The notes under the pieces are model-generated. The model saw only the letters and a program-made list of their open reading frames with translations, made no database searches and was not told where the DNA came from. A DNA stretch of 64,000 nt, taken from positions 20,166 through 84,165 of IMG/VR virus record IMGVR_UViG_3300027896_000023. The stretch is one strand, 5' to 3'. Positions 1 through 17,281 of the stretch are shown here, piece after piece. The position numbers and the translations under genes were made by a program. The stretch comes from a virus. Each line of letters starts with the position of its first letter. Position 1 is the first letter of the stretch.

Positions 1-382
1 TTCTTGGCCTGGGTGTTCTTGATGATTGTTCTGCAGGGCCACTTCACTGTTGGAGAAGACAACCTGTGGATCCGTTACTGCGAAGTTGCCTTGGTAATCT
101 ATGGGGCTTGCTACGCAGTTTTTCTCTGGGTATCTTTCATGCGTTATTATTCGGCGTAAAAAAAATTTTTAGGTTACAGGTGCTTGTAGATCCATTTGCC
201 AAACAAGTACCCAAGAACAGCAATCCACAACGCGATACCTGTCCACCCGGCTAAATCATTATAGTAGTTTGCCCCAACCATAAACAGCAAAGTGCCTACA
301 AGCAACAGCAGAATCAACACAGCATTCAATTTATCCATACGGTATGGTACCTACAAACAAAATATATATTTTGCGTCGACCA

Positions 383-492: not shown

Positions 493-599
493 AAAAGTTA
501 TTTACCTAAAAGAAAGCTATATACTTATTTCAAAGTTATTTACACCAAAAAAAAGTATATACGTCAAAAAAATTTTATAAAGGCATCGATCACGCCCAT

Positions 600-930
600 C
601 GATTTTACGTTCAACAACAAAATCTCAAGCAGTGTACAACACCAACAACAAACAAAACAGGCAGACAACAACAAACAACAACAAAGGCGCCCCAACCAGA
701 ACCCGCAAGGTTCTCCAAAGAGAACCAAAACCCCCAAACACACACACCCCAAACAAAGTGCCATGTATCTTATGTGATTTTGGCTTTATTTGACTGTTTG
801 ATTTTTGTTTATTGGGTGAACTGTTGGATTTTTGCGCGCGCTAGATTTTTGTTTATTGGTTGTTTTTTTATGGTTTTTGTGGTTATTATAATGTTATATT
901 ATTTTAAAGGCTAATTTAGGCTTATTTTAA
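600..930. other. Origin-like low-complexity region with A/C-rich to T/G-rich strand switch at ~760
   Basis: CAA/CAC-rich 615-755 followed by TTG/TTT-rich 775-910; no credible ORF. Confidence 0.4.
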
Positions 931-932
931 CG

Positions 933-969
933 TGTTACGCATAACACTTATTAAGGTGTATGCGTAACA
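933..969 (+). promoter_or_regulatory. TATA box (TTATTAA, 948-954) embedded in an 11-bp inverted repeat
   Basis: TGTTACGCATA (933-943) and TATGCGTAACA (959-969) flank the TATA element upstream of the large RNA candidate. Confidence 0.55.
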
Positions 970-979
970 TGGATTAACG

Positions 980-1790
980 AAAAAGGTGTGTGATCCAAAA
1001 AAGACAACTAAAAAAGCGTTGGGCGCGCGCGCGCGCCCAAACCAGCCTTAAAGGCTTGGTGAACGGAACAGCACCGTTTAATCAACTGCCAAACATCCCA
1101 ATACCATTACGGGAACGGATGGATGCTAAACTGAATGGCAAGGTCTACATGGTTAAACGGTGAAATAAAAATCTGTGGTGCTTCATCAAAAGATTTAGGA
1201 CGGTTGACGATTGCCTATCGTACCTTAACATATAGCTCCTGCTAGGTGTGTTGCCTCCAGATTAAGCTGGACGGTGCTAGTTAACCTGATGTACAAATAA
1301 GGGTTAATTTGAGAGACTGAGACAACAAAAAATCCGCTAATTATGAGTCCCAACTTTTACGGTTGCCTGCGGTATGTTAAGGAAAAACTGCGCAGAAATG
1401 GCAAAAGACTGATGCCAAAGGAACTTCAATGTTTCAATAAACCGCCCTAAATCGAGTAGGCAATCGGGACGGGCTAGCACCGTAACCCAACAACATAACT
1501 GCAAGTGAAACACGTACATAAATTTGAAAGGTAAATTGCAATAAACCGAGTATGGACACCCGCAAGATAGTCACGAAAGGGAGATTTACCGATTAAAGTT
1601 AAAACAGTTATGGCTTGGTAACGGTGCACCCGCACTACTGAAATTCTACAACACTTGCGTTATGGCTTAACAAGTCATGGCGCAGACACACACACGCAGG
1701 CTAATACTCGCCTGCCGACCGCAAGGTCGTACCCCTAGATCTTTTTTCTACGCAGTTATGCGCTCGAGTCGTTGCAAATTACGACGAGAG
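980..1790 (+). ncRNA. Candidate large (~800 nt) ornate structured ncRNA; ends approximate
   Basis: No credible ORF. Many helices, e.g. 1072-1081/1153-1162, 1192-1205/1440-1453, 1208-1217/1457-1466, 1271-1280/1474-1483, 1494-1502/1752-1760, 1656-1668/1672-1684 (3 G-U), and a GCAA tetraloop hairpin at 1716-1729. Confidence 0.7.
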
Positions 1791-1807
1791 AACTAGGAGG
1801 ATTAGTT

Positions 1808-2197
1808 ATGTCAACCAGTATTGAACGACTTTTAGATAGAAACGCCGATAAAATCTACTATCACCCTCGCACAGGCGAGAAGATGTCAACCTGCACCTGT
1901 GGAGACAAGGTACATTCAATGCCACCAATCTCCAACCTGCACACGAACGGATGCCCACGCACTACGTACCACCGAATGGTCAACGCCCAGTGGATAGGCG
2001 ACACGCCGATTCCGACAGGGCAACTCAAGACATTCTGGGGAGAACGTAAGCATGGATACGTCAGCAAGCACCAACACGCACAGCATGGCGCAGGCAGATT
2101 CCTACCTCCGCAGATGCCAGAACGCAAAGTGAGGATACTCTGCAGACACATAGACCGCGCAATCAAAGAGACCAAGACCACTGTACAAGTTGCCTAA
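1808..2197 (+). CDS. Hypothetical protein with Cys/His motif
   Basis: ORF; GGAGGA RBS 5' of ATG 1808. Confidence 0.7.
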   Translation: MSTSIERLLDRNADKIYYHPRTGEKMSTCTCGDKVHSMPPISNLHTNGCPRTTYHRMVNAQWIGDTPIPTGQLKTFWGERKHGYVSKHQHAQHGAGRFLPPQMPERKVRILCRHIDRAIKETKTTVQVA

Positions 2198-2361
2198 TCC
2201 TCCCAGTAATAACGTAAAAGGAGTGTGAAAGAAAAATGGAACATCAACCATCCATCCAACAGCGAGTACAAACCGTCTACGACTCTCTACAGGGAAGTAG
2301 CAAAACCGTGACCTCAGACATCAGAACAGCACTATACATAGTGCGAACGGTGGGAGTCTAA

Positions 2362-2580
2362 ATGGGACACATGCACTCACCATGCGAAAACTGCTTGGGA
2401 GTCGGGTGTGAATCATGCCCGAAATACATCCAAGCCAAGCAACTAGCAGAGTTCGAAGCCAAGCAGTGTGAGGATCAGCTCAAATGGGAACAAGCCCAAG
2501 ATGTACTCGTCGATCCAATCCAGCGGTCTGATTCACCTAAAGGTTGGAAACAATATACAGAAAGGCTACGTCATCAGTAG
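2362..2580 (+). CDS. Small Cys-rich hypothetical protein
   Basis: ORF with CxxC..CxxC, abutting an upstream small ORF (2236-2361). Confidence 0.6.
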   Translation: MGHMHSPCENCLGVGCESCPKYIQAKQLAEFEAKQCEDQLKWEQAQDVLVDPIQRSDSPKGWKQYTERLRHQ

Positions 2581-2589
2581 CCTCTTTTT
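2563..2589 (+). terminator. Hairpin plus T-tract
   Basis: AGGCTAC-gtcatca-GTAGCCT-CTTTTT. Confidence 0.5.
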
Positions 2590-2666
2590 CTCAGTGACCA
2601 ATATGACTCAATTACTAAATCTCGGAGAAGATGGGCGGTCTAACAAGACTCGTGCTATCACTGAGT

Positions 2667-2689
2667 CGGTGCAGAAATGCACCGTTTTT
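2667..2689 (+). terminator. Hairpin (GAAA loop) plus T-tract
   Basis: CGGTGCA-GAAA-TGCACCG-TTTTT. Confidence 0.5.
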
Positions 2690-2726
2690 CTCAGTCACAG
2701 AATGACAAACCTATGGAGGTGTATTT

Positions 2727-3044
2727 ATGGATGAAAATGAAGATGAACGGCGACTTATCGCTTTTCTCAACAACACAGGATTAGGAGTAAAGATTGAATC
2801 CACTGACGTCATTAACTCAGCACTCTACGCTTGGTCCACATTGCCAGTCTCGCATAACCCAACAATGACTCGATGTTTCATACAGGACTTCGCAGCATCA
2901 CTTGATCGGAAACACTTCTTTCAAAGCTACGAACAACTTCAGGAGTTCTGGGATCTCGCTGGCAAAAGAGTCCAGGGCATGCATGAACTCAGCAAAGTTG
3001 GCGCAGCACTCACTGTTAGTCGCAGGGAGGTGAAAGAAATATGA
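2727..3044 (+). CDS. Hypothetical protein
   Basis: ORF with GGAGGTG RBS. Confidence 0.7.
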   Translation: MDENEDERRLIAFLNNTGLGVKIESTDVINSALYAWSTLPVSHNPTMTRCFIQDFAASLDRKHFFQSYEQLQEFWDLAGKRVQGMHELSKVGAALTVSRREVKEI

Positions 3045-3288
3045 TAAGCACAGTATCACGTAAAGAAGCGTTGAAAGCAATCTGCACTTTATGCAAGCCA
3101 CATGCTTGCAGTGTATGTTATGATCCGCTTGAAACTTCAGGCGTTACAATGGAACAGTTACAAAAATACTTCAATCCTTAATCTCCGTTTCTTTGGAGAC
3201 AAACCATGTTTAGCAGCGAAGGGTTACACAACGGCTGCACCTGTAGCTTCCACAATTGACAGGCCCATGGCGATGTAACCTATAAAAA

Positions 3289-3654
3289 TTGGAGGAAAAA
3301 TCTTTGCGAAAACCCGCAAACATAGAACTGCTCGAACACTTCAAGCTTGATGACCTTGGGTCTCAGTTTGAAATGGTCGAACGTAAATCTCCCGTGATAG
3401 AGAAAAGTAAAAGGAAAGTCGAATGGCACGCTGTTTTTCCAATGCATATTCCACAACAGGACTACATGGATAAAATGGCTTCAACAGCAATCGCTAAAGA
3501 CAACTGCATCAGACTCGAACCAGGACACACACATGTCTTAGACGTCGCAATATGCTTCAGATGCACTCCACAGGAATGCCTCAGCAACCATGCATGTGTT
3601 CGCAAGCAAGCGGTACACTCAACCCTTGCACACATGAACAGGGCTAAGTGGTAG
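3289..3654 (+). CDS. Hypothetical protein (start may be TTG 3304)
   Basis: ORF with GGAGG RBS, overlapping the AAA gene start. Confidence 0.6.
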   Translation: MEEKSLRKPANIELLEHFKLDDLGSQFEMVERKSPVIEKSKRKVEWHAVFPMHIPQQDYMDKMASTAIAKDNCIRLEPGHTHVLDVAICFRCTPQECLSNHACVRKQAVHSTLAHMNRAKW

Positions 3655-5372
3655 ATATGACAGCTTCAGATATAACCGGCGCAAGCAACAACTGGCTTGT
3701 CGAAGATGCAATCCGAAGACGTGCACAGTGGACCTGCAGCCCAATCAAAGTAACTGAAGACAAGAAACGCATCGACCAACTCATAGACAGCGCAGCAACA
3801 GGCGGCCAAGCATTACTCCTTGGACAAGTCAAAGGATACCGCAAGATCTTAGAGTGGAATCTCCAACGCAATGAACTAAAAGAAATCAGCAAGCCAGGCA
3901 GAGAAATCATAAGAGTACCAGTCGCAGATCAAGACCAGCCAGTAATACAATTGATCGACAAGGAACTACATAACACGAGTCCATTAGGATCCGACGGCTT
4001 ACCAACACAACCGCAGTCAGCACTTGTAATCATCCACAACGTAATGACTAAACCGCAGGCAGATGCAATCGCTAATTGGTTAGTGGCATGGAGTAAAGAC
4101 AACAGCTTATTCGTCAACCAAGGAACAGTCTATACTTTCACTACAGACGAATCATTGTTCATTGAACCAGTGCGACGCGCATGCAACGTCCAGTATATAC
4201 CAACAGGATCAGTAGAGGAAATCCGTGCGCAGATACAAAACCTCGTTGACAAAATCAACAAGAACAACAGGGAAATGCGGCTACGAGTAGACGAACAGGA
4301 AGTCCAAGCAGCTAAAGGATTAGATCTCACACAGACAGTCACATCATATCTCTATGGCCTATCAATCTCAAAGACAACGCCGAAACGATGTGGAGTTGAA
4401 CCCTTCACAGAGATGAAGATTCAACAGTTGAAGACTATCGGATTGAACTTGAAGACACCAGAGATTGGCCCCGACGACTTAGGCGGATACCAAAGTCTCA
4501 AAGCAGAAATCAACTTCATCGCATCGCTAGTGCAAGATCCAGCGAAGACAGCTCATTATGGCCTATCATTGCCAAGAGGATTCTTGCTGGATGGCCCACC
4601 TGGAACCGGCAAGACAAGGATCGCTGAAGTATTAGCTTGGATATTGAAGATGCCGTTTGTGAAGCTGGAGAACAACAACTTGTACAAAGGAATCGTTGGA
4701 GAGTCAGAAGCAACTGTCAACAAGATCTTCCGCGCATTAGAAGCCCTAAGCCCACTGGTGCTGTTCATAGATGAAGCAGATGCAGTGTTTCCACGCAGAG
4801 ACAAACAGGTCTCTACAGATTCAGGTGTAGGACGACGTGTATTCAACGACATGCTGGATAAACTGGCAAGTCCAAAGAGAGGCTACCTTGTGATGATGGC
4901 TACCAATCTCGTAGAAGACATAGATGAAGCAGCAATCAGACCTGGAAGAATTGGCGCATGTTACTACGTTCCATATCCCGATATGGCAGCGAGACAACAG
5001 ATATTCCAAGTGCAATGCACACGTCTGCATCATTACTTGATGGATCCACAGATCGACTACAGCTATCTTGCAAAGCAATCATGTATGATGAGTGGCGCTG
5101 AAATAGAGAAGTGGTGCGAACTTGCATCCCAACAAGCATTGAGACAAAACAGCGAACCAGTAACACAAGGGCACTTCGAAGACGTAGAAGAACAAGTCAC
5201 AGTTAACATCGACGAACGCATCGCAGACATGCGTAAGAAAATCGAAGTACGCAAACACATCATGAACTTCAACGTACCACAGATGGATCGTGACATCCAA
5301 GGATTAATGGCGGAGATCACAGGCAGACAAGGCAGCAGCATCGACACCTTCACACAAAATCTAGGAAAATAA
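3648..5372 (+). CDS. AAA+ ATPase, Ycf46-like
   Basis: Walker A GPPGTGKT, Walker B LFIDEAD, sensor ATN, SRH IRPGRI; degenerate N-terminal domain; DLGGYQSLK. Confidence 0.9.
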   Translation: MVDMTASDITGASNNWLVEDAIRRRAQWTCSPIKVTEDKKRIDQLIDSAATGGQALLLGQVKGYRKILEWNLQRNELKEISKPGREIIRVPVADQDQPVIQLIDKELHNTSPLGSDGLPTQPQSALVIIHNVMTKPQADAIANWLVAWSKDNSLFVNQGTVYTFTTDESLFIEPVRRACNVQYIPTGSVEEIRAQIQNLVDKINKNNREMRLRVDEQEVQAAKGLDLTQTVTSYLYGLSISKTTPKRCGVEPFTEMKIQQLKTIGLNLKTPEIGPDDLGGYQSLKAEINFIASLVQDPAKTAHYGLSLPRGFLLDGPPGTGKTRIAEVLAWILKMPFVKLENNNLYKGIVGESEATVNKIFRALEALSPLVLFIDEADAVFPRRDKQVSTDSGVGRRVFNDMLDKLASPKRGYLVMMATNLVEDIDEAAIRPGRIGACYYVPYPDMAARQQIFQVQCTRLHHYLMDPQIDYSYLAKQSCMMSGAEIEKWCELASQQALRQNSEPVTQGHFEDVEEQVTVNIDERIADMRKKIEVRKHIMNFNVPQMDRDIQGLMAEITGRQGSSIDTFTQNLGK

Positions 5373-5397
5373 AAGAAAGAAAACCGGAGGAAAATGT

Positions 5398-5796
5398 ATG
5401 AGTCATTTCACCGTGTATAGAATATGTAAAATCAATGGCCTTACAGAAGGCTTTTTGATCCGTGCTGTAGAGTTCTGGGCTAAACAGTTAGGTGCCCAGA
5501 TCTTCTATGGCAAAATCCCCTTCGCCTTTGGCGAAGCACAGAAAGTTGTTGTTGGTTTCCAAACCGAAGACATGCGGTCTCCCATCGGCTTCAAAGTAAC
5601 GGCTGATGGAGGATTGCAGGTCTGTGGAGACAGCTACATGCAGCAAGACGAGTTTGCTAAATACAAGATGATGGCTGAGTCAGGCGTCTTAACGAACAGC
5701 TATCTCGTTGCACAGAAGGCAAAGTCTGAAGGCATGACCTTCACGCTGCAGGTACAGGAGACCCAAGTGCACATGGAAGTGGATTATAATGCCTAA
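5398..5796 (+). CDS. DUF1257/Ycf35-like protein
   Basis: MSHFT N-terminus, IGF...GD motif, position after a Ycf46-like ATPase. Confidence 0.6.
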   Translation: MSHFTVYRICKINGLTEGFLIRAVEFWAKQLGAQIFYGKIPFAFGEAQKVVVGFQTEDMRSPIGFKVTADGGLQVCGDSYMQQDEFAKYKMMAESGVLTNSYLVAQKAKSEGMTFTLQVQETQVHMEVDYNA

Positions 5797-5974
5797 AGTT
5801 AAAATCGATTTCAAGTTCGATGGAACAATGAAGACTGAAGCTGAAGGATTCGAAGGCGGCAAATGCGTGACAGCAACCAACAACCTGATTGAAGCTATAG
5901 CTAAACGTCAGACCGATCAACGATTCAAGACTGATTATTATGTCAACGAAAACGCGGTTAATATTGGTAATTAA
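5789..5974 (+). CDS. DUF2997-like small protein
   Basis: DG...EGFEGGKCVTAT..L...KTDYY pattern. Confidence 0.75.
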   Translation: MPKVKIDFKFDGTMKTEAEGFEGGKCVTATNNLIEAIAKRQTDQRFKTDYYVNENAVNIGN

Positions 5975-6116
5975 AACCGATGGCACGATCGAGACTGGAC
6001 AGAAGGAAAGCGGAGAAGCTTTCCATTTTCCATGTGTAGATCAACCTCAAGATGACGCAGCTGATAAGTTACTCTCAGACATAGCGAAAACTAAGCAGTC
6101 AAGTTGGTGTGGATAA
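5964..6116 (+). CDS. 50-aa hypothetical protein ending WCG (not in ORF track)
   Basis: TTG-start ORF filling the gap between the DUF2997-like gene and 6117. Confidence 0.55.
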   Translation: MVIKTDGTIETGQKESGEAFHFPCVDQPQDDAADKLLSDIAKTKQSSWCG

Positions 6117-7373
6117 ATGCCAAGTAAAAGAGAAGTAGATATTCCCGATGCTTTAGACATCGCATTGCAAGGTATCAACTTTAGCAGTCCTACTGTAGAT
6201 ATAGATATTCCAACGCCATGCATTGAAGATGACAGGAAAATTCAAAGCTTCACGCAAAGCCTACCTGAACCTGAAGAAACTGAACTGCAACTGCTTATGT
6301 CCAGTAAACCCGTAGTGTTGCAGGGCTTCTTGTTCTCCATGCATTTCAGTGGAGATGACTTGCTGAAGCTACAGGTGAATAATCTGGATGACAGCCACTT
6401 CAACGAGATGAAAGATTGGCTTGAAGATACTATGCTGGAGATTGACAAGTCACATACCGAACGACATAACAGCGGTGCATCCAGCTGGGAAGGATCAGGT
6501 ACTCGTCTCAAAGACTTTGTTGATACAGGTGAAGCAGAGAATACGCCTGATAGATCACGCAGCATCAAGATCAGAATGTTTCCGCGTTCATTCAGCAACA
6601 GCTTAGCACGCATCAAAGAAGACTTAGTGTATGAACGACTCCGCAAATGCATCAGCATCACCACGTATAGCAGTGGCAGATTCAAACAGATGATCTTCGT
6701 CTTGCCCTTCAGCAAAGCAACTGAGATGGTAACAAAGATCGCTGAAGCCAACGTGAAAGTAGATGCAGTCAACGCAGAAATCAAAGAGTATGTGCAAAGC
6801 AAAGACTACACTAAGCTACATGAAATCCTAGAGAACTACAAACTTGAGAAGCTTGCAGACGAACGCAGCTGGAAGATACCTCACATCAGATATGAATTGC
6901 AACCCTTCAACCTAGACACCAAAGCAGTTATGGACATCATGAAAGTTGGAAACAAAAACGTCAAAGAAGAACTGAAAGAAAAGTACAACGCTGGCTTAAA
7001 AGAAATCGAGGCAACTCTCAACGAGAAAAACAAAACCATGAGTACACAAATCATGCAGGTATTCAAATCTGAAATCGACAAGCAAGTAGGGCAGATCGTA
7101 GCACGTGCAAAGATGGAGACTAAAACTGCAGCTGAAACTTCTGAGTCTCTGAAGCAGGAACTAGATGACCTCAAAGAGAAAGCAACATCGATTGGTATGG
7201 AAGCGTTAGCTGGCACAGTGATTGATCCCTTGACAGCACTTATAGATAATCCAAGTAAGGCAGCTGAACTCTTCGGTGTCTCTGTGATGAGTGACTTGCA
7301 ATATGAAGTAGACGATAGGATCGTAGCGTTCCTACGTACTCAAGCTACAGGTGTAGAAGATGCCAAGCTGTGA
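6117..7373 (+). CDS. Coiled-coil protein, possibly DUF3150-like
   Basis: 418-aa ORF with helical C-half; in the Ycf46/DUF1257/DUF2997 context. Confidence 0.55.
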   Translation: MPSKREVDIPDALDIALQGINFSSPTVDIDIPTPCIEDDRKIQSFTQSLPEPEETELQLLMSSKPVVLQGFLFSMHFSGDDLLKLQVNNLDDSHFNEMKDWLEDTMLEIDKSHTERHNSGASSWEGSGTRLKDFVDTGEAENTPDRSRSIKIRMFPRSFSNSLARIKEDLVYERLRKCISITTYSSGRFKQMIFVLPFSKATEMVTKIAEANVKVDAVNAEIKEYVQSKDYTKLHEILENYKLEKLADERSWKIPHIRYELQPFNLDTKAVMDIMKVGNKNVKEELKEKYNAGLKEIEATLNEKNKTMSTQIMQVFKSEIDKQVGQIVARAKMETKTAAETSESLKQELDDLKEKATSIGMEALAGTVIDPLTALIDNPSKAAELFGVSVMSDLQYEVDDRIVAFLRTQATGVEDAKL

Positions 7374-7623
7374 GTGCGGATGGGAAGGAACATGGTACGA
7401 GACAGAGAAGTCTTGTTGCCCAGTATGTAGCAAACCGTTAGGAGATAAGAAACATGAATCGTAAAGTGCAGATCACCCGCAAATATAATCTTGGCTGTAT
7501 CGGCAAGCAGTACGAGTCAGTTGAATTCTGCGTAAGTGGATGCAATACAGCTGAAGTAATTGCGGAAATTGAACACGCCTATGTAGATTACATAGCTTCA
7601 ATCACGTCAGGGGTGATACATTA

Positions 7624-7845
7624 ATGGCAACTAAACAACTGCCTAAGAAGTTTAGTGAGTGGACAGATGAACAACTCATCAACTACTACAAGGAATTGCA
7701 TAGCTGCATCAACATCTCAGAATGCTTCAGCACTTCAGACCTTATGAACTATGATAACATGGAGATTGAACTCATTAAACGAGGCTACGAAGTAAAAGAA
7801 ACCACGCATATAACAGTGCAGAAAAAGATTGAAGAGGAGGGATAG
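7624..7845 (+). CDS. Hypothetical protein
   Basis: ORF with GGTGA RBS. Confidence 0.65.
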   Translation: MATKQLPKKFSEWTDEQLINYYKELHSCINISECFSTSDLMNYDNMEIELIKRGYEVKETTHITVQKKIEEEG

Positions 7846-7846
7846 T

Positions 7847-8245
7847 ATGGCAAGATACTACATACGTCAAGTAAACGTTGCGTCTCAGACGGATCGCCTA
7901 GATGAAGACGGAAATCCACAGGTGTACAAAGTTTCTCAAGCGCAGGATGGACATTGGGAGTGCAGTTGTAAGGCATGGATATTCCAACGGGCACATCTAC
8001 TCGATGGACGACGAGCTGATGAATGGGAGACTCCAAATGGAGTATGTAAGCACGCTTGGTGGGTGATCCAGAACGAAGGACGCATGGCTACAGCTGTAGC
8101 TGCTGGTGGAACACACAGGATCGAATCAGAAGGACTCTTCGTGGACATAGCAGATGGACAGATCATTGGATTCCTTGCGCATCTTGGTGCGCCACCTCAA
8201 GTACCCACGGTTGCCCGTGATGTTTTCCATCCACGGCGCCGCTAA
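7847..8245 (+). CDS. SWIM zinc-finger protein
   Basis: Y.V......WECSCKAW...CKH motif; GGAGG RBS. Confidence 0.75.
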   Translation: MARYYIRQVNVASQTDRLDEDGNPQVYKVSQAQDGHWECSCKAWIFQRAHLLDGRRADEWETPNGVCKHAWWVIQNEGRMATAVAAGGTHRIESEGLFVDIADGQIIGFLAHLGAPPQVPTVARDVFHPRRR

Positions 8246-8404
8246 ATAAACGATCTACAGGTGAAGTTTCTATGGGAACAATAGACATCTTAGCTTTAGC
8301 TTCGGGCTTGATCCCGATGACTGCCTTGCAAGCTTGTGACAAGATGCAAAGCAGCGGCAAATGCGAGAACAATTGCCGTACATGTGCCATTATAATACAG
8401 TTAA

Positions 8405-8671
8405 GTGGACAAACTCTGCTTGGCAAAGGACAGAAAACACTTGAACCATGATGACGGGTGCTTTAACTGCGACAACTGTAGTGCATCTACACCTACAGCT
8501 TGGATGAAGGTAGAGAACAACCATAAACTCTGCCCCAAATGCGCTCAACATCTAGGTTGCCACTGTACTACACGTAGATGTGTACCTTACGAAGCTTGGC
8601 TCAACAGTAGTTCCTTATGTGGAGCATGCACTAGCGTTTGCATCTGGATAAAACTACAGGTGAAGCAGTAA
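8405..8671 (+). CDS. Cys-rich zinc-finger protein
   Basis: Multiple CxxC pairs. Confidence 0.5.
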   Translation: MDKLCLAKDRKHLNHDDGCFNCDNCSASTPTAWMKVENNHKLCPKCAQHLGCHCTTRRCVPYEAWLNSSSLCGACTSVCIWIKLQVKQ

Positions 8672-8823
8672 TGCCAACATTAACATGTGCTCGCTGCAAA
8701 GCCACAGAAGAATATGATGAGCCGAAAACTCTACAGGATTTGCCTGATGGTTTATGGATGAATGGTAAATGGTACTGTAGCAGATGCGCTAACAGAGTAG
8801 CCATTCAACATCCTCCCCACTAA
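8671..8823 (+). CDS. Small zinc-ribbon protein
   Basis: CARC...WYCSRC; TAATG overlap with upstream gene. Confidence 0.55.
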   Translation: MPTLTCARCKATEEYDEPKTLQDLPDGLWMNGKWYCSRCANRVAIQHPPH

Positions 8824-8876
8824 ACTACAGGTGAAGAAGATGAAGAAGACCAAGCGGATCAGAGGACACCTCTACA

Positions 8877-9080
8877 ATGATGGGACTCCAAGCGAAGTTG
8901 GACCCGATGGTGAACGTTACTATGGGTAAACTACAGGTACAGTTAGAAGGAAACTTTGAAGATATGAGTCGCATCTACGAATTCATGAAACTCCATACCA
9001 AATCTGCCTCGAAAGCAACGTGGCTAAGCAAACCAGATGACGCACTCGTCTCCGCCGTCTCCTTCTCCGTCACAATCTAA
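8877..9080 (+). CDS. Hypothetical protein
   Basis: ORF in a dense + strand gene run. Confidence 0.45.
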   Translation: MMGLQAKLDPMVNVTMGKLQVQLEGNFEDMSRIYEFMKLHTKSASKATWLSKPDDALVSAVSFSVTI

Positions 9081-9221
9081 ACTACAGGTGCAACCTCAAT
9101 GGAGAATCCCTTCTGGTTCTACGATGGCGGCGTCGGCATGTGCAAATGGATATGGTTCTGGGTGGAGATGGCTGGTATCCCAACCAGAGATTGTCCCCGT
9201 GACTACTAACTACAGGTGTAG

Positions 9222-9698
9222 ATGATGCCGAAGATAGATTCGCTGCAAGTTTTCATGCAAAACAATGGACTGCTGAAGCCCAAGCCCCCTCAACCTCCAC
9301 GTAAAAAACGTGAACCTACACCTGAACTTAGCTGGGAAGGCGGAAGCGAAGATGGAGACTCAGCGGAGTGGGAATGGGAAGACCTCATGACGAATCTTTC
9401 AGCTGTACTTAAGCAACTTCAGAAGCGCAACAACCATGAAGGCTACTGGAAAGCCAGCGTCACAGGCTTCGGATGGAGAAAGCAGGATGGAACGAAGGAC
9501 TTCAAAGCATATACAGCTGTAGAATTCCTCCGTACAATCCTGCCAGATACCGATTGCCACTTCGACATCTACGTAGACAAAGTAAAACATCAGCTTCGCA
9601 TCCACAACTTCCACCATGATGCACCAACAGGCGAATGGCACACGGTCAAGCCCATGACGTACCGTGAAGCAGACAAGTTCTACTCCACTGACAACTAA
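9222..9698 (+). CDS. Hypothetical protein (GFGWR / HHDAPTGE motifs)
   Basis: 158-aa ORF with typical codon usage. Confidence 0.7.
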   Translation: MMPKIDSLQVFMQNNGLLKPKPPQPPRKKREPTPELSWEGGSEDGDSAEWEWEDLMTNLSAVLKQLQKRNNHEGYWKASVTGFGWRKQDGTKDFKAYTAVEFLRTILPDTDCHFDIYVDKVKHQLRIHNFHHDAPTGEWHTVKPMTYREADKFYSTDN

Positions 9699-9857
9699 AA
9701 CAGGGGAGGGGTGAGTGAAAGTGAACAAACGAATTAAATGTCCAGCTTGCAAAGGCACAGGAAACGGCGCGTCTACAGATGTAGATTGCGATGAATGTAG
9801 AGGAAGCGGGTACATCTATATACCCGTGACCATAACACCATCAAGGATGTGAGTAAC

Positions 9858-9992
9858 ATGGTAACAGAAACAAGAAGAATAACAAACCGCAGAAACCAAG
9901 CAGTCATCAGAAAGAAACGCAAACAACTTGGCTTATGCCAACGATGCGGACAACCCCTACCAAAGAAACCTACAGGTGAAGCCACATCATAA
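9858..9992 (+). CDS. Small basic CxxC protein (not in ORF track)
   Basis: MVTETRR...RKQLGLCQRCGQPL; similar to the N-terminus of the convergent gene 9987-10283. Confidence 0.5.
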   Translation: MVTETRRITNRRNQAVIRKKRKQLGLCQRCGQPLPKKPTGEATS

Positions 9993-10283
9993 CCTACGTT
10001 GACTCCTACAATCTACACATCGCCCAAGCGAATCAAACTTTACAGCATCAGAAGATTTGCCACAGTACAGGCAACGCTTCAACACTACTACAGGTGAAAC
10101 CTGACTTGCTGTCGCCGCCACAGCAACTGCAGCAGCACGCCCCCGTCGAACAGGCGAAAGCTTCTTCTTTTCTACAGGTGCAGATGACTCGCCCAAAGAG
10201 TGCCCGCATTTTGTACAACAGTTCCTCGCTTTCCTTTCAGCGTACAAACGACGCATCAATTCAGCCTTAGTAAGCCTTACCAT
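9987..10283 (-). CDS. Basic zinc-finger putative DNA-binding protein
   Basis: Basic helix followed by CxxC and a second CxxC..CxxC; only minus-strand gene in this arm. Confidence 0.65.
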   Translation of the reverse strand: MVRLTKAELMRRLYAERKARNCCTKCGHSLGESSAPVEKKKLSPVRRGRAAAVAVAATASQVSPVVVLKRCLYCGKSSDAVKFDSLGRCVDCRSQRRL

Positions 10284-10372
10284 ACAGCATCAATTCAGCC
10301 TTAGTAAGCCTTACCATACAGCATCAATTCAGCCTTAGTAAGCCTTACCATACAACAGAGTAAGCCTTACCA
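10253..10372. repeat. Three perfect tandem 34-bp repeats plus a partial copy
   Basis: GCATCAATTCAGCCTTAGTAAGCCTTACCATACA at 10253, 10287 and 10321; partial AGTAAGCCTTACCA at 10359. Confidence 0.95.
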
Positions 10373-10419
10373 CAAGATAAGAGTAACGTTACCGCCAATA
10401 GTAACAGTTACTACACCTA

Positions 10420-10590
10420 TAGAAAGAACCAAACCCCCAACCAACCACCCACCCAAACATCAACGGCACTTTTTTGTATGTTGTTTTTGGTTGTGCGGAT
10501 TGTTTGTTTGTTGTTTGTTGTTGGAGTGGGTTGTTGATGGGCACGGCTGGTATATGTTGGGGTTCTCTGGGCATATTGTTCTTGTTGTTA
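10420..10590. other. Second A/C-rich to G/T-rich switch region, similar to 720-800
   Basis: AGAACCAAACCCCCAA..CCCAAACA followed by TTG-rich sequence. Confidence 0.45.
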
Positions 10591-10838
10591 CAGGTGTAGA
10601 TGTCATAGCATCATTTGGCACTGCTGAATTTGCTGGTGTCTATCATTCAAGAAAAAATGTTGAAGCATCAATGCGTACTCCGTTTCAAGCGGCATCACCA
10701 TGACAACATACATACTTTACGTTTGACAACACGTTTAAAAGACGGTTGCTCTTGTACAGTACAGGTGTAAGTGAGTGATATGCGGATGGATAGATGGGGT
10801 TGCAAGGGGAAGGAAGGAAAAGTTACAGGTGAAATTGT

Positions 10839-11024
10839 ATGGGTAAGTACGGTAGAAAACCTGAACAGGTAAAGCAAGACACGCATCCACGTCTCTGCCG
10901 AAAATGTGGAAAGCGAACCTACAGTTGGAGTTGTTGCGGTCAACAGACTGCACGAGTTAATGACAAAGCGTTTACCAAGAACAGGCTTAGCCAAAATCTC
11001 GGTGACAAAGCAGATTACAGGTGA
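10839..11024 (+). CDS. Small zinc-finger protein
   Basis: CRKC..CC; AGGTGA RBS. Confidence 0.55.
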   Translation: MGKYGRKPEQVKQDTHPRLCRKCGKRTYSWSCCGQQTARVNDKAFTKNRLSQNLGDKADYR

Positions 11025-11187
11025 AGAGGTGAAAATGAAATGAGTGAACCAAAGATTTACTGGCGAGACATCGGGGAACATGGTGCAATAACACAGCGCG
11101 ACGGATGCTACTACTGGGAGGCATGGCGAAGAAGCTACACCTGCACAACAATACCTGATGGGTGAAGCTAAAGTAAAGAATCGGTAA

Positions 11188-11213
11188 CCACGTGTGCCAT
11201 TTGGCAAACATGG
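11188..11213. promoter_or_regulatory. 26-bp palindromic site, copy 1 (parS-like)
   Basis: CCACGTGTGCCATTTGGCAAACATGG; near-identical copies at 34319 and 58411. Confidence 0.6.
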
Positions 11214-11220
11214 ATGCAAG

Positions 11221-11320
11221 CCATACTCCCGCCGAGTGTGGAAGAGTAACTCTCTTGTTCCGAAGGTTCGTCGGAAGACATTCACCGAACTGCAAAGCGG
11301 TCTGGTGACAAAGAGTTTAC
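11221..11320 (+). ncRNA. Candidate structured leader RNA upstream of the Ku-like gene
   Basis: Hairpin 11221-11241, then a multi-branch element closed by 11248-11258/11308-11317 with inner stems TTCCGA/TCGGAA and TCACC/GGTGA. Confidence 0.4.
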
Positions 11321-11344
11321 ATGAAAAATACAGGTGAAGAATGA

Positions 11345-12208
11345 ATGCGAATAGCATTAGCAGGATTTGAAGCCGACGTTTCCACTGAGTTAGTGAAGTC
11401 GGCTAAGCTGATTGATGAACCATTGATTGTTGAACTCATCAACGGCTACCAAGAAGTGTGTAAGTCATGCGTTTCTTGCGCTGGCTGCACGAAATATCCG
11501 TTCTGTTCCTCCATCGAGGTTAAGGAACGGAGTGTACCCTTGTATCCTACAGGTGAAACTTTTGTGGATGACGAGGGCGAAACCAAACCCGTCATGCGAC
11601 AGGGCGAACCCTACAAGCAAAGCATGAAAACCAAAGGCGTAGAAGATTGCAACGGCGTGTTTCGACAGGTGAAGAAAGGCGAGTACAAAGGATACGAAGT
11701 AGTAGCAGACCCATCTGACCCCACCAAGATACTGCTTGAAGAACGAGTCATGTTCGAGGAAGGCACAAAGATTCTTGACATCACTGAAGAAGACCTGTTC
11801 CCTGCAGGTGTAGAAACAAACTTCTTAATTGAGAAGCTCTACGAAATCTATCCGCACCATGACAAAAGCATCGAGAAGGATAACCGCAACAAACAGAAAC
11901 TCTACGAGATACATCAGCTACTCTCCGAGAAAAAGAAAGTAGCAATCAAGAATGGATTCGTGTGGCGTGGAGGCACGTATCAAGCGTGGGCTGCAATCAT
12001 TGAAGCTATGACTTTTGAAGATGGCAAATGGTTACTCACGTTGAAGACCACCCAAGCACAGCTTAGTTGGATTCATCCACAGGAAGTACCCGTTGTGTTG
12101 ACTGAACTACAGGTGAAGAAAGCGCCAACCGTGAACAACCTGACGGCGATTACAAGTTTCCTCAGCAAAGTAAAGGCTGAACAGAAGCCGCAACTGCAGG
12201 TGAAGTAA
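11345..12208 (+). CDS. Ku-like DNA end-binding protein with Cys-rich insertion
   Basis: Ordered Ku-like motifs: KGYE, TKILDI, EKLYEIYP, KLYEI..LL..KKKVAI, FVWR, LLTL. Confidence 0.6.
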   Translation: MRIALAGFEADVSTELVKSAKLIDEPLIVELINGYQEVCKSCVSCAGCTKYPFCSSIEVKERSVPLYPTGETFVDDEGETKPVMRQGEPYKQSMKTKGVEDCNGVFRQVKKGEYKGYEVVADPSDPTKILLEERVMFEEGTKILDITEEDLFPAGVETNFLIEKLYEIYPHHDKSIEKDNRNKQKLYEIHQLLSEKKKVAIKNGFVWRGGTYQAWAAIIEAMTFEDGKWLLTLKTTQAQLSWIHPQEVPVVLTELQVKKAPTVNNLTAITSFLSKVKAEQKPQLQVK

Positions 12209-12432
12209 GTTGGCTGACGACTTTCAGTTGATTGAACTGCGCAACCAACGACATGGATGAGGAAGAGTATGACCCCGAAGGAAAGAAAGTTAACTAGAGA
12301 ATTCGATGCCATCCTCAGAAATACAGCTGAAGATTTAGAGACAGGCGCAGAATCCATCAAGAATCTTCGGGATGCACATGGCAAATACTCTGTGGATATA
12401 CAGGAATCAAAACTTATGGAACGTGTTCAAAC

Positions 12433-12720
12433 ATGATGTATGAATCAGATGACTTCAAAGTTACACGCAACAAAGCTACACCTGAAAACCCCTTCAGCTT
12501 TACAACCAAAAGCAAATGCAAGAAGGGTTGGGTTTCAGCTAACTTCTTTTGGAAACCAAGCAACGTGACCATGCGAATCATCGGCGACAAGATACCATGC
12601 ATGGAGATAGCGTATCCATTCGTGAACCACAACGGCGGCGGAGTGCTGGCGGACATGGCACCGCAGGAACTCCTACGTACGCTGGTTAATCGACTGAACA
12701 TACAGGTGAAGAATCAATGA
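12433..12720 (+). CDS. Hypothetical protein
   Basis: ORF with overlapping start/stop codons. Confidence 0.6.
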   Translation: MMYESDDFKVTRNKATPENPFSFTTKSKCKKGWVSANFFWKPSNVTMRIIGDKIPCMEIAYPFVNHNGGGVLADMAPQELLRTLVNRLNIQVKNQ

Positions 12721-13133
12721 GTGAACAAGACGAATGTGAAGATTGCAACGGCACAGGCTACGAGAAACATGGTAGCGCAGATGAGAAGAAATGTACCACG
12801 TGTAAAGGCACAGGCAAAGTACCCCACACCTACACTGAAGAAGAGATAAACAAAATCATAAACTTCCATGGCGCCAACGGAAAACTCATCGACATCTTCT
12901 CCTTGCATGGCGTACTCTTTGTTGGCAATACTACACCTATAGTTACCTTAGAGAATGGACAAATCAAACACTGCAATGGATGGGACTTGAGTCACGAGGG
13001 ACAGTACACACGGTTCAGCACAGGCAACCTTGCAGTTTCCATAGATGACTTTTGGGATTGCCATACACCTGAAGAAGTACATGATACGTTCGGCGAACTG
13101 CTGGAAGAACGAGTCAAGGAGAATCTAGTATGA
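12717..13133 (+). CDS. Protein with DnaJ-type CxxCxGxG zinc finger
   Basis: CEDCNGTG...CTTCKGTG. Confidence 0.7.
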   Translation: MSEQDECEDCNGTGYEKHGSADEKKCTTCKGTGKVPHTYTEEEINKIINFHGANGKLIDIFSLHGVLFVGNTTPIVTLENGQIKHCNGWDLSHEGQYTRFSTGNLAVSIDDFWDCHTPEEVHDTFGELLEERVKENLV

Positions 13134-13318
13134 GTTGCCCTAATTGTGGAACTAAAGTAGTAGACGTCTTCGTCACCAGCAACTACACGTTAACCAAAGA
13201 TGGTGATGATTGGGTGCGAACAGACATCGAGAACCCAGTTGACGATTCAACCTACAGGTGTACCAAATGCCGTAAGGTGTTACCACCTGAACTGCTGGAA
13301 GAATTAGGAGTGACCTAA
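13130..13318 (+). CDS. Small zinc-ribbon protein
   Basis: CPNCG...CTKC. Confidence 0.65.
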   Translation: MSCPNCGTKVVDVFVTSNYTLTKDGDDWVRTDIENPVDDSTYRCTKCRKVLPPELLEELGVT

Positions 13319-13319
13319 G

Positions 13320-13520
13320 ATGAAAGAGTACACCGTGTACCTGAAAGAAATCATGGATGAAACCAGCGTGGATGCAGATGACGAGGCACAAGCGAAACGT
13401 ACAGCTGCAGATTTGTTTCTGGATTTTCACCCTGACCTGACCAGAGAATTTGTTGAGGCGCACATGGAGATAATCGAGACACGAGAACTGACAGCAGAGG
13501 AGGAGAAGGAAATTGGGTGA
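13320..13520 (+). CDS. Hypothetical acidic protein
   Basis: ORF; GGAGTGA RBS. Confidence 0.6.
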   Translation: MKEYTVYLKEIMDETSVDADDEAQAKRTAADLFLDFHPDLTREFVEAHMEIIETRELTAEEEKEIG

Positions 13521-14025
13521 CCATAGAACAAACGGTGAGAAACTTTACGATGAGTTCGACGGCTTGATTGACAGCGCCGAAGCGTATGGATTCCATGTGA
13601 TTGCAGAAAAGCTACGCAAGATTCGAGACCACACACCGAAGTATCCTACAGCTGTAGATGAAGGCATCAGTATGTTGAGGAAAGGAAAGAAGCCTCCTGC
13701 ATGGATAGAGAAGCTGGATGATGATGCATTGAAGGAGACACTTCAAGATTGTAAAGAAGCATTGAAGTCACAGAAGTGTGGGTGGGATACGCATACTGTT
13801 GAGGAACTGCAGCAGCTTGAGGCAGAAACTACAAGGCGCAAAGGCTTACGGTTCTTAGACCCAGCAGCCTACGACCAAGAACAGCTAAAGAAATACTTCG
13901 TGCAACCTACAGCTGCAGAGAATCCGAAGTGCCCCAACTGCAAGAACATCATGGTGATAGATACCACAGGTAAGTCACACTGCGAATACTGTGAGAAGGA
14001 GGCGAAGCAAGATGGCAGAACCTAA
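13513..14025 (+). CDS. Hypothetical protein with C-terminal zinc ribbon
   Basis: CPNC...CEYC. Confidence 0.65.
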   Translation: MGDHRTNGEKLYDEFDGLIDSAEAYGFHVIAEKLRKIRDHTPKYPTAVDEGISMLRKGKKPPAWIEKLDDDALKETLQDCKEALKSQKCGWDTHTVEELQQLEAETTRRKGLRFLDPAAYDQEQLKKYFVQPTAAENPKCPNCKNIMVIDTTGKSHCEYCEKEAKQDGRT

Positions 14026-14353
14026 ACAAAAATTTGTCATAAGAGTTCACTTCACCAACAACGATACCTACGCAGACTGGAGTACAATCTACATCAAAGG
14101 CAAGATACCTGACAAAGCATGGCTGAAGAGTTTGTACGATGGAGTGAATGAACCCAAAGACATGACGGTGCTGGGAACTATTCTTCCGCGACACCCGAAG
14201 ATTCCAGTTGTTAGTCTTGACAACATTGCAGGAACATACGACGACCCGTATGATGCAGCGAATTGTATACAAGACCTGTCTTCAGCTGAAGATAGAAAGC
14301 TAGGACAGTACACGAATGGACAAGGAGTCATTGTAGTTTACTACAAAGATTGA
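14012..14353 (+). CDS. Hypothetical protein
   Basis: AGGAGG RBS before ATG 14012. Confidence 0.65.
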   Translation: MAEPKQKFVIRVHFTNNDTYADWSTIYIKGKIPDKAWLKSLYDGVNEPKDMTVLGTILPRHPKIPVVSLDNIAGTYDDPYDAANCIQDLSSAEDRKLGQYTNGQGVIVVYYKD

Positions 14354-14363
14354 GGAATGAAAG

Positions 14364-14567
14364 TTGAGTAAGAAAAAGCAAGGACAAGTCATCGCCAATG
14401 GCGTACCTGTGTATGGCTTCGACGAATACAACGAGGCGGGTGCACGTATGGTAGCTGGCGGCGAGTTGAAAAAGATACTCCGTTTGAAGCGGAGTCTTGG
14501 AGAAATCCGAGTACAGTATCCATCGGGGCGAGAAGTCCTGATAAAAATATCAGAGGTAAACGAGTAA
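14364..14567 (+). CDS. Hypothetical protein
   Basis: ORF, translationally coupled to next gene. Confidence 0.55.
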   Translation: MSKKKQGQVIANGVPVYGFDEYNEAGARMVAGGELKKILRLKRSLGEIRVQYPSGREVLIKISEVNE

Positions 14568-15127
14568 TGAAAGTGTTTAGTTTTGACAAGGAAACATTGT
14601 TGGAAGAATTGAAGACTAACCCGAAGTGGAGTAAGTACCTCAGCATCTACAACAAAGAAGATGGAGACGGAGACCTGTCACAAAAGTTCAATGAAGACTG
14701 TACGGGCTGCTGCAACCCAAGCACATTGATGTTTGTGTTGGCTGACACAGAAGAGGAAGCAAAAGAAATGACCTTCAAAAACGAAGCTGGAATGTGCGGC
14801 GACTGCATGGCAACTGAACTGGCTAACACTGAAGGCGGGACCTACGAACTTCATTACCATAAAGATACAACTGCACCTGCAGGAAAAATCTACAAAGTCC
14901 CAGCGTGCGAATCCTGTGGGGAACCTTTAGAGAAAGTTCAGTTCAACGACTACACCACGTACACATTCAACGCGAAGATAGGACAGTATGAGAACACAGG
15001 CGGCGATGCTGAAAGCAAATGCAACGAGTGTGAAGCAAAACTGGGAGATGAAGTGGGCGACTTCGTTGGCGACTACCAAGCTACCAAGCTAATTAAAGAA
15101 AAGAAACCTACAGGTGAAACCAAATGA
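14567..15127 (+). CDS. Cys-rich zinc-binding protein
   Basis: Four CxxC motifs. Confidence 0.7.
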   Translation: MKVFSFDKETLLEELKTNPKWSKYLSIYNKEDGDGDLSQKFNEDCTGCCNPSTLMFVLADTEEEAKEMTFKNEAGMCGDCMATELANTEGGTYELHYHKDTTAPAGKIYKVPACESCGEPLEKVQFNDYTTYTFNAKIGQYENTGGDAESKCNECEAKLGDEVGDFVGDYQATKLIKEKKPTGETK

Positions 15128-15576
15128 ACAACAGCATTGTCACATCAATCATGGCAGAGATAACTCCTGATGACATCGACCCAACAACTGAAGCTATAAT
15201 CTTCCTTATCGATAATCGCTACAAAGAACTAGGCATCGAAACAAAATACGGCAAAACCATCACACTTGACACAACACCTAAACCTGAACGGCATGGCTAC
15301 AGCAGTTACTTTGAACCTCTTAACAAACAAGTTGCAACCTTAGACATCCGTAAGAAAGGAGCTATCAATGGCAAAGCTGAACTGCAATTCACAGCCCGCC
15401 CTGAAACCATTGGAGACGAAGACAATGAAGAGGAAGTATTCATTGTCACTGTGGAAGAACGAGGGATGCTAGATGCAACTGGAAACTACAAGCAGTTCAA
15501 GACGCCACGTGGAACCTACACAATCAAGGGTACAGAGAAAGCTGAGTTCAAAATTATCAACGAGGTGCTACCATGA
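15124..15576 (+). CDS. Hypothetical protein
   Basis: ORF with ATGA overlaps. Confidence 0.7.
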   Translation: MNNSIVTSIMAEITPDDIDPTTEAIIFLIDNRYKELGIETKYGKTITLDTTPKPERHGYSSYFEPLNKQVATLDIRKKGAINGKAELQFTARPETIGDEDNEEEVFIVTVEERGMLDATGNYKQFKTPRGTYTIKGTEKAEFKIINEVLP

Positions 15577-16256
15577 CCGAACTACAGGTGAAGAAACAGA
15601 ACCTCCGCCAACAGTTTGAACATTTCCTACTGACCGACTATCCTTCTGATGCAGGAGAAACATTGAAGGAAGCCCAGAAGTACGCTAAAGAAATGTACTT
15701 CAGTGACCCAGACGGCAGCATACCTGACCAATACATAGGCGAAGATATACTGAATGACATCAACAGCAAATTCTACCGTGTGCTTTCATTCATCCGCAGC
15801 CTATTCGAAGCGAAGCATCCAGAAGCTAAAGACGTCTTTATCAACGTAGACCCAAGCTACGAAGACCACACCTGCTATGTGGTACATCAATACAGCAGCC
15901 ACAAAGTTCTACTCAGTGGCAACGACAAAGCATGGAACTTCTGGTGGCGTAACGTGTATGAATTCAAACGGTTCGTAACGTCTACGCTTGAGGCGATGGA
16001 AGAAATCTACAAGCCCCAAACATTGCACGTAGTCATCAACAACTACGGCGGAGTTCTGAATGACATTGACCCATTCGTTGATGAAGCAGATGCATTGAAA
16101 CAGTTTGAAGTGTACGCTGAAATTCCCTATGCTACATACGCCAAACGCAAAGCAGCTTACGACAAAGGCAAACGCGGCAACCTCTGGGATGATGAAGACA
16201 CAGATGTACAGGTGTGGGAAATCAAAGTGATACCCAAAGGAGGCAAGCCTGAGTAA
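15573..16256 (+). CDS. Hypothetical protein
   Basis: 227-aa ORF; GAGGTG RBS. Confidence 0.75.
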   Translation: MTELQVKKQNLRQQFEHFLLTDYPSDAGETLKEAQKYAKEMYFSDPDGSIPDQYIGEDILNDINSKFYRVLSFIRSLFEAKHPEAKDVFINVDPSYEDHTCYVVHQYSSHKVLLSGNDKAWNFWWRNVYEFKRFVTSTLEAMEEIYKPQTLHVVINNYGGVLNDIDPFVDEADALKQFEVYAEIPYATYAKRKAAYDKGKRGNLWDDEDTDVQVWEIKVIPKGGKPE

Positions 16257-16355
16257 TGCCGTACCTTGTGAAAGCTAAGATAACAGGAGAGAGACAAAAG
16301 GTGAAGCGTCTTCTGGAAGAAGTAGACTTGCTTGCCCAACAACTACACGTGAAGG

Positions 16356-17005: not shown

Positions 17006-17281
17006 ATGCTTTCAGAAAGCGCACAGTGGAACAGAAGAGTTTGAGAAATGCCAACTGTGTCTTTGGCAAGATTGCTGTGAAGCACATTACCAACTCACTT
17101 AGGCTCTCTTAAGTTGGTTTACGATTAAAGATGCATCAGTTGTTATCCGCTTCCGCATCGACGGCAAAGTGCACCAAGAAATTGTGGACTATCCAATGAT
17201 CGAAGTCTCTGCAGACATATCCGCATTGAAGACGTACCTGCACAAAGCAGTAGCAGACTTCAACAGCAGGGGGAACAAGCA

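Follow-up and report, generated by a model that had tools for sequence, protein, structure and literature searches.

A core-defective, hammerhead-like junction at the ribosome-binding site of the first early gene of a freshwater tailed virus, and the candidate leader upstream of it

The sequence analysed here is an 811-nt stretch, positions 980 to 1790, of the final 64 kb (hereafter the window, to which coordinates refer unless another contig is named) of the 84,165-bp IMG/VR virus record IMGVR_UViG_3300027896_000023 (G000), which comes from a freshwater metagenome and is estimated to be 68% complete. An earlier reading made from the letters alone (the sequence-only reading) had taken this stretch, which lies just upstream of the first rightward early gene, for a large ornate RNA of an archaeal virus, either new or a very divergent member of the size class of GOLLD, ROOL and OLE. 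The solid result of the present analysis is of another kind, namely a conserved junction of hammerhead shape with a defective core that sits on the ribosome-binding site of this early gene. We give a probability of about 0.5 to the interpretation that the stretch is an untranslated leader or control region of the rightward early operon, structured on the + strand and provided with a hammerhead-derived clamp, and not a conserved giant RNA. Among the observations that support a leader with a clamp are conservation limited to positions 1742-1805, a moderate preference of folding for the + strand over the - strand, and the pairing of the Shine-Dalgarno sequence of the gene in computed folds.

G000 is a tailed virus, in which comparison with PHROGs names a major head protein (MCP), a maturation protease, a portal protein and a large terminase (TerL), all encoded upstream of the window. 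The look-alikes of the MCP are Uroviricota proteins of SU10 type, and those of an AAA ATPase encoded at 3648-5372 are bacterial or phage proteins. Moreover, hammerheads with the same hairpin as the junction are located in phage contigs and in metagenome-assembled genomes (MAGs) of Patescibacteria, Clostridia and Cyanobacteria. Nothing was found that points to archaea, and the attribution to an archaeal virus is not upheld. The gene-free interval containing the stretch (Table 1) is a strand switch, with - strand genes on its left and + strand genes on its right. The 129-aa product of the first early gene has only two homologues (56% and 50% identity) among 5.8 billion clusters.

The junction and the Shine-Dalgarno helix

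Three helices surround the junction, which is open at stem III, in the folds of the window and of L005, a 1,678-nt metagenome contig whose neighbouring protein is 55-56% identical to its G000 counterpart and which was the sole find of a metagenome scan. Column identity between the two junctions (L005 876-934) is 90%. Stem II and the U-run/AGAGAA stem III are present in both, and the loop of stem I is GUUA in the window and GCAA in L005. Of the window, only 1742-1805 aligns with L005, at 84% identity over 64 nt by blastn and with an nhmmer E value of 8e-7. The sequence-only reading did not include this junction, part of which it had assigned to a domain-closing stem (1494-1502/1752-1760).

The affinity to hammerhead ribozymes is apparent from stem II. 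The 18-mer of hairpin 1766-1783 recurs in four further IMG/VR contigs, in each of which it lies within CUGAUGAG...CGAAAC and forms stem II of a canonical type III hammerhead. Scored with the Rfam hammerhead model RF00008 (gathering score 48.5 bits), these hammerheads reach 45.9-49.8 bits; this model matched in 4 of the 5 records searched, over the cut-off in 2, and gave no match in the relative G005. Four contigs of bacterial MAGs (L052-L055) contain the 22-mer GAG...CGA as well; two are from Patescibacteria, one is from Clostridia and one bears the label Cyanobacteria. Three of the four have a CUGAU or CUGAC box, L055 being without a CUGA box, and CUGAUGAG...CGAAA words are visible in L052 and L053. 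No match to RF00008 was obtained in the MAG genomes at the gathering score; below it, significant hits of 36.8 and 31.6 bits were obtained in two of the four. Stem II with its loop (22 nt) is identical in the window junction and in the hammerheads of four IMG/VR and four MAG contigs. Further resemblances are the GA...GA words on either side of stem II, a GUUA loop on stem I, which L052 also has, and a CUA triplet at the would-be cleavage site. A model of the junction (R1), derived from its sequences in the window and in L005, aligns over its full length to the hammerheads of L052 and L053 (32.6 and 30.2 bits) and of L018, and in this alignment the true hammerheads carry an inserted "ga" exactly at the place of G5-A6. 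A search of G000, G005 and the related contig L003 with R1 found no second copy of the junction. Matches to the pattern TTCTACGCAGNNATGCGC (14 in viral sequences) all lacked a downstream hairpin and were set aside as chance occurrences.

The core itself departs from the hammerhead consensus. Between stems I and II it reads C-U-C-G-A in the window and C-U-U-G-A in L005, so that the core box CUGANGA of RF00008 is found in neither, and the GAA expected between stems II and III is GAG in both when they are read in hammerhead-like register. RF00008 did not match the junction even at E<=10, either in its own genome or in a cmscan of 91 nt (1725-1815), which gave one irrelevant match. In the numbering of the CUGANGA core, G5 and A6 are essential for hammerhead cleavage. 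Given this biochemistry, self-cleavage is not expected of a junction that lacks G5-A6 and has GAG for GAA, and we predict that it has been lost. The occurrence of the same core changes in two diverged phages argues for a retained, non-catalytic role. We therefore read the junction as a probable relative of hammerheads by descent which is not a member of the family by the defining features of RF00008. According to Perreault et al. 2011 (PMC3088659), the hammerhead core fits the consensus "almost without exception".

Several features of the hammerheads found along the way may be noted. The phages G001 and G004 (GC 37.5%), which bear such hammerheads, have no protein in common with G000, and the identity of a 22-nt stem II block between MAGs and phages without shared proteins is unusual in a stem-loop whose sequence is normally free to vary. 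In unrelated low-GC phages, two to three hammerheads occur in one orientation, 0.7-1.9 kb apart, followed by ORF-poor sequence (ORF, open reading frame) of 0.6-1.1 kb. Those of L018 are at G003 17896-17952 and 19781-19839 on the - strand, and those of L017 at G001 6870-6928, with weaker ones at 6147-6206 and 8283-8342.

The minimum free energy (MFE) fold of 1690-1812 extends the junction into a basal helix that includes the Shine-Dalgarno sequence. Its pairs are UCUUUU 1740-1745 with GAGAGA 1786-1791, CCUAG 1734-1738 with CUAGG 1793-1797, and CC 1732-1733 with GG 1799-1800. The fold has a z-score of -4.03, with none of 200 shuffles as stable, and in the ensemble computed for 980-1830 positions 1793-1797 and 1799-1800 are unpaired with a probability of at most 0.05. 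The early operon leader would thus end in a type III hammerhead-derived junction that has kept stem I, the identical 22 nt of stem II and the flanking GA/GA words, with a basal helix that would continue into CCCCUAG:CUAGG.GG and bury the Shine-Dalgarno sequence of gene 1808-2197, acting as a clamp in cis that restrains translation of this first early gene. If the ancestor was active, its self-cleavage between stems III and I would have freed the anti-Shine-Dalgarno strand and released such a clamp; the present one would have to be opened by another agent, be it heat, a factor or competing pairings in the leader. The features of the sequence, the pattern of its conservation and the failure of the junction to qualify as a hammerhead are observed; that the stretch is transcribed, the junction inactive and the helix a clamp is what we infer from them.

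On the + strand, terminator-like hairpins are found at 2563-2583 and 2667-2684, each followed by TTTTTCTCAG. The same TTTTTCT word also opens the junction at 1741-1749 and its L005 counterpart.

Table 1. Positions of features in the gene-free interval and at the start of the early genes (probabilities are pair probabilities in computed ensembles).
Feature	Position	Strand	Details
Gene-free interval	340-1807	none	ORF lists; between leftward gene 174-338 (- strand) and first rightward early gene
Four AT-rich direct repeats	494-571	+	19-nt spacing, AAAGTTATTTAC / AAAGCTATATAC type; families D1, D2; lowest-GC part of interval
AC-rich then GT-rich block	600-900	none	part of interval common to distant relatives
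Near-palindrome	933-969	none	37 nt, 18-nt arms, 83% complementary; just past TATAAT word at 887-892
(CG)n palindrome TTGGGCGCGCGCGCGCGCCCAA then T run on - strand	1010-1040	-	terminator-like (hairpin 1040-1019) for leftward transcription
Small-domain closing helix	1072-1084/1150-1162	+	13 bp, one G-U on + strand; probability 0.99
Helix A:A'	1192-1205/1440-1453	+	13/14 paired; probability 0.91 (fold from 980), 0.06 (fold from 590)
Helix B:B'	1208-1217/1457-1466	+	10/10 paired; probability 0.01 (fold from 980), 0.69 (fold from 590)
Complementarity C:C'	1271-1280/1474-1483	+	10/10 paired; probability 0.00 in both folds
Hairpin	1655-1685	+	14 bp, 4 G-U; clearest + strand-specific stem; probability 0.93
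Two adjacent hairpins	1696-1729	+	second (1716-1729) with GCAA loop
Anti-Shine-Dalgarno strand, CCCCUAG + UCUUUU	1732-1745	+	5' strand of basal helix; MFE of 1690-1812
Three-way junction, probably hammerhead-derived	1741-1800	+	stem I 1751-1754/1759-1762, stem II 1768-1772/1781-1785, stem III U-run/AGAGAA
Shine-Dalgarno UAGGAGG of first early gene	1794-1800	+	from sequence; paired in computed folds
First early gene	1808-2197	+	ORF lists; 129 aa, no function assigned

Folding and turnover of the sequence upstream of the junction

The stretch is non-coding, in agreement with the sequence-only reading. Its longest ORFs are of 60, 57 and 53 aa, and reassigning any one stop codon yields open frames of 95 codons at most. 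When the six-frame peptides of 340-1810 (n=48) were compared with the relatives and the rest of the genome, only the 3' motif was matched (E 4e-4), all others having E values of at least 0.02. Hidden coding was rejected on these grounds. A comparison with Rfam, which had been suggested along with that reading, was carried out and matched no known family: there were no matches in the whole window at gathering scores, and six weak, chance-level matches, all far below the cut-off, in 300-2000 at E<=10. GOLLD, ROOL, OLE, HEARO, group I and II introns and RNase P were not among the matches at either level, and a scan for tRNA and tmRNA returned none.

All complementarities listed in the sequence-only reading are present where it placed them, including the G-U-containing stems on the + strand (1545-1551/1613-1619, 7 bp of which 2 are G-U, and the hairpin at 1655-1685) and a GNRA loop, the GCAA of hairpin 1716-1729, which is the only one in the stretch. 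Their weight in the computed ensembles is another matter. Pair probability is about 0 for 1545-1551/1613-1619 and likewise for both stems thought to close domains, 1494-1502/1752-1760 (9/9 paired), which rivals stem I of the conserved junction, and 1501-1507/1652-1658 (7/7 paired). Three long complementarities had been noted in the parallel, non-nested order A, B, C...A', B', C'. The complementarities exist, B and B' lying 2-3 nt from A and A', and an A-B/A'-B' spacing this short is rare (3 of 300 shuffles); the order of the triple is not rare in itself, at least as many mutually crossing triples (two or more) being present in 31 of 300 shuffles, and C:C', one among several copies of a GCACCGT/ACGGTGC word, is not predicted to form. 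The single mismatch of A:A' is A-C on the + strand and G-U on the - strand. In the models, A:A' and B:B' behave as alternatives, with a balance set by the assumed start of the RNA (Table 1).

Stem statistics exceed expectation. Four Watson-Crick stems of at least 10 bp were counted against 0.27 expected (0/100 dinucleotide shuffles as high), and six of at least 9 bp against 1.0; with G-U pairs included, there are 10 stems of 11 bp or more on the + strand (2.7 expected; 0/100) and 11 on the - strand (6.7 expected; 9/100). The MFE of the 811 nt has z-scores of -6.04 (20 shuffles) and -6.24 (12 shuffles) on the + strand, and of -2.87 and -2.23 on the - strand. The + strand value is the lowest among 16 strand-windows of 811 nt, the seven control windows of the same length ranging from +2.64 to -5.14 over both strands. 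The most negative control, 38000-38810 on the + strand, is antisense to a repeat-rich gene of 1532 aa; values near -5 can thus arise without an RNA gene, internal repeats mimicking a structure signal. With 200-nt windows, signal was obtained at 801-1200, on both strands and driven by palindromes, and at 1601-1900 on the + strand, and no excess of structure was seen at the centre, 1200-1600 (z -1.0 to +1.4). The centre is unremarkable in this respect, and the majority of predicted hairpins are of only 3-5 bp.

Relatives were sparse: a blastn search of phage GenBank entries, single-protein scans of viral contigs and a genome scan with an alignment (A1) gave no match, and the viral contigs L003 and L004 (34% identity) were the sole finds of alignment scans. 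L004 is part of G005, an 84,303-bp record that is a true syntenic relative of G000, with 58 six-frame ORF queries from G000 matching at E<1e-5 and 25-75% identity. In L005, too, the GT-rich block and the gene are separated by a spacer poor in ORFs, some 850 nt long. It has a mild excess of stems, with 4 Watson-Crick stems of 9 bp or more where 1.0 are expected, a count that none of 60 shuffles reached. This spacer folds with z-scores of -2.55 (+ strand) and -2.65 (- strand), i.e. without strand bias, and with a centroid far from the MFE structure, and window 900-1740 has no more 6- to 9-mers in common with L005 60-875 than shuffled sequences do. The words TTTAGG and TAGGCAA of boxes A and B, shared by the window and L005, were treated as chance, since global k-mer sharing does not exceed that of shuffles. 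In G005 and L003 there is no equivalent spacer, the AC/GT block leading to genes within about 300 nt. Without an alignable spacer in L005, and with none in G005 and L003, the 750 nt at 980-1740 are lineage-specific. The missing conserved blocks count against membership in the class of large ornate RNAs, a judgement that is not final, as it is drawn from a single comparable relative.

Alternative explanations and neighbouring elements

A number of results weigh against a + strand leader with a clamp. On the - strand, the strong terminator-like hairpin 1040-1019 hints that transcription passes leftward through the stretch; scanning for + strand promoters gave no convincing candidate, and the runs holding the stretch amount to one DNA run, probably the source, with no RNA run listed. 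In L005, the analogue of the clamp, CUUCC:GGAAG, is present only in an MFE structure of low frequency (0.04) and not in the centroid. When folding starts at 590, the probability of stem III is 0.03, and A:A' is replaced by B:B' (0.69) together with 1188-1199/1734-1745 (0.88). The spacer is no more complementary to the junction than chance would allow (9 where 5.5 are expected, a level reached by 9/100 shuffles; 5 against 5.3 in L005). A long-range switch onto the junction was accordingly set aside and kept only as a speculative reading: box A (1188-1205) would mimic the ribosome-binding region and pair with either A' or the anti-Shine-Dalgarno strand 1734-1745, B:B' would form only in the second state, and the leader would toggle the clamp of a dead hammerhead and thereby gate early translation. 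That the 0.8-kb stretch is such a fast-evolving, lineage-specific riboregulator, or else that a new multimeric phage RNA makes its A/B and A'/B' contacts as pseudoknots or between molecules, seems to us very doubtful, the two being judged jointly. Counted in favour of a leader is that the scan for terminator-like sites found none on the + strand between the stretch and gene 1808-2197; neither 300-2300 nor 1800-20000 shows an enrichment of sigma-70 promoters or of intrinsic terminators.

The stretch is indeed long, ORF-free and better folded than shuffles on one strand, as large ornate RNAs are. A stand-alone, novel structured RNA of about 800 nt, with non-nested helices that would be pseudoknots, conformers or inter-molecular contacts as in GOLLD, ROOL and OLE (which use inter-molecular pairs, as described in the preprint of Kretsch et al., 10.1101/2024.12.08.627333), would account for the difference between a z-score of about -6 on the + strand and -2 to -3 on the - strand, for the long stems and the rare A-B/A'-B' adjacency, and for a spacer of similar size with some stem excess in L005. 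It is nevertheless unlikely, for the L005 spacer has neither sequence nor k-mer similarity, strand bias nor a well-defined centroid, G005 and L003 do without a spacer, the centre carries no local structure signal, and a single GNRA loop, hairpins mostly of 3-5 bp, the lack of a + strand terminator ahead of the gene and the lack of Rfam matches are not what such an RNA would lead one to expect. The proposed membership in the GOLLD/ROOL/OLE class is therefore not supported: a z-score of -6 with perfect long-range complementarities is not enough for an ornate RNA when the sole relative shows none of it and aligns over the last 60 nt only.

A possible, if rather unlikely, explanation is a DNA-level element at the divergent gene switch, such as a replication origin, a packaging site or operators, the repeats and words GCACCGT, CAGTTATG and (CG)n being protein sites or cruciforms. 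The position at the -/+ switch near a shallow minimum of cumulative GC skew fits this view, as do GCACCGT (4 of 12 genome copies here, in both orientations), the stem excess seen in part on both strands, the 19-nt-spaced repeats and palindromes (494-571, 933-969, 1019-1040) and the CGCCGT/CACCGT repeats in the AC-rich block of G005. It leaves unexplained the + strand bias, stabilisation relative to shuffles being about twice as large on that strand (about -40 against -20 kcal/mol) and G-U pairs lengthening its stems. Moreover, the motifs are not common to L005, the block conserved across relatives (600-900) lies outside the stretch, and in the one DNA run the stretch lies within one contig, without joints, inversions or rearrangement. 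It is also conceivable, yet improbable, that only the last 60-110 nt are functional and that the remainder is mostly unconstrained spacer, with inverted repeats left behind by mutation or due to chance. In favour of this are the full turnover of sequence relative to L005 next to a junction that is 84-90% identical, the lack of the spacer in G005, and the z-score of -5.1 of a repeat-rich coding control that is no structured RNA; against it stand the count of long perfect stems, which none of 100 shuffles attained, the rare A-B adjacency, and the similar length of ORF-free spacers in two diverged phages. Under the favoured interpretation of a leader with a hammerhead-derived clamp, the upstream 750 nt would be lineage-specific filler that folds, structured at both ends and offering several long-range pairings that exclude one another, but with no conserved architecture.

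The direct repeats at 494-571 could represent iterons or, for the leftward genes, stacked promoter boxes, and a promoter-like match is found on the - strand at 581-554. A smaller (CG)n palindrome is located at 835-846; GCGCGC, of which the 811 nt have five canonical copies where 0.02 are expected from the genome rate, is nearly absent elsewhere in the genome. The AC/GT block aligns by nhmmer between window positions of about 691-851 and L004 5448-5598 and L003 5445-5604; L005 begins within its GT-rich half (L005 1-60), and the region of the block in L004 is 5170-5650. The switch from AC-rich to GT-rich sequence in this block is abrupt, and the words TTATTTGNC...TTTGG and AACTGTTGG are common to distant relatives. 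Both divergent transcripts would begin with GU-rich RNA there.

Known systems and biological meaning

Type III hammerheads (RF00008) are described in intergenic regions of phages and prophages by Perreault et al. (PMC3088659), and the three-way junction directly before a phage gene in G000 is comparable in location; the difference lies in the missing G5-A6, in GAG for GAA and in the failure of RF00008 to match at any of the thresholds used. The same source lists a few "inactive hammerhead-like RNAs", one of them from a Xanthomonas phage, which resemble the junction in combining the hammerhead shape with a non-consensus core. GOLLD, ROOL and OLE, as presented by Kretsch et al. (10.1101/2024.12.08.627333), share with the stretch a length of about 0.6-0.8 kb, the non-coding nature and helices that cannot all be nested, and with GOLLD and ROOL the phage context is also shared; these families are defined by deep conservation and covariation, unlike the stretch.

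Leaders that hide a Shine-Dalgarno sequence in cis are familiar from RNA thermometers and the expression platforms of riboswitches. As in these, an upstream anti-Shine-Dalgarno strand is predicted to pair with the ribosome-binding site in G000; in contrast to these, no ligand-binding or thermometer motif was recognised, the scaffold is that of a hammerhead, and the corresponding pairing predicted in L005 is weak. Active ribozymes in the 5' untranslated regions of fungal and plant RNA viruses, whose cleavage is required for translation, are reported by Lopez-Galiano et al. 2026 (PMC13725137). The parallel is a hammerhead-type motif in the leader of a viral gene, which in G000 would likewise be tied to the initiation of translation; G000 differs from the viruses described there in its DNA genome and in a core that is predicted to be dead.

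Hammerheads and their inactive look-alikes before phage genes were thus already known, and what is added with solidity is the conserved, core-defective junction on the ribosome-binding site of the first early gene. If the interpretation as a clamp is true, a self-cleaving ribozyme would have lost its activity while its scaffold was retained to clamp translation of the first early gene of the phage. This would provide a concrete case for the role of hammerhead-shaped phage leaders, and for the passage from a ribozyme to a purely structural regulator.

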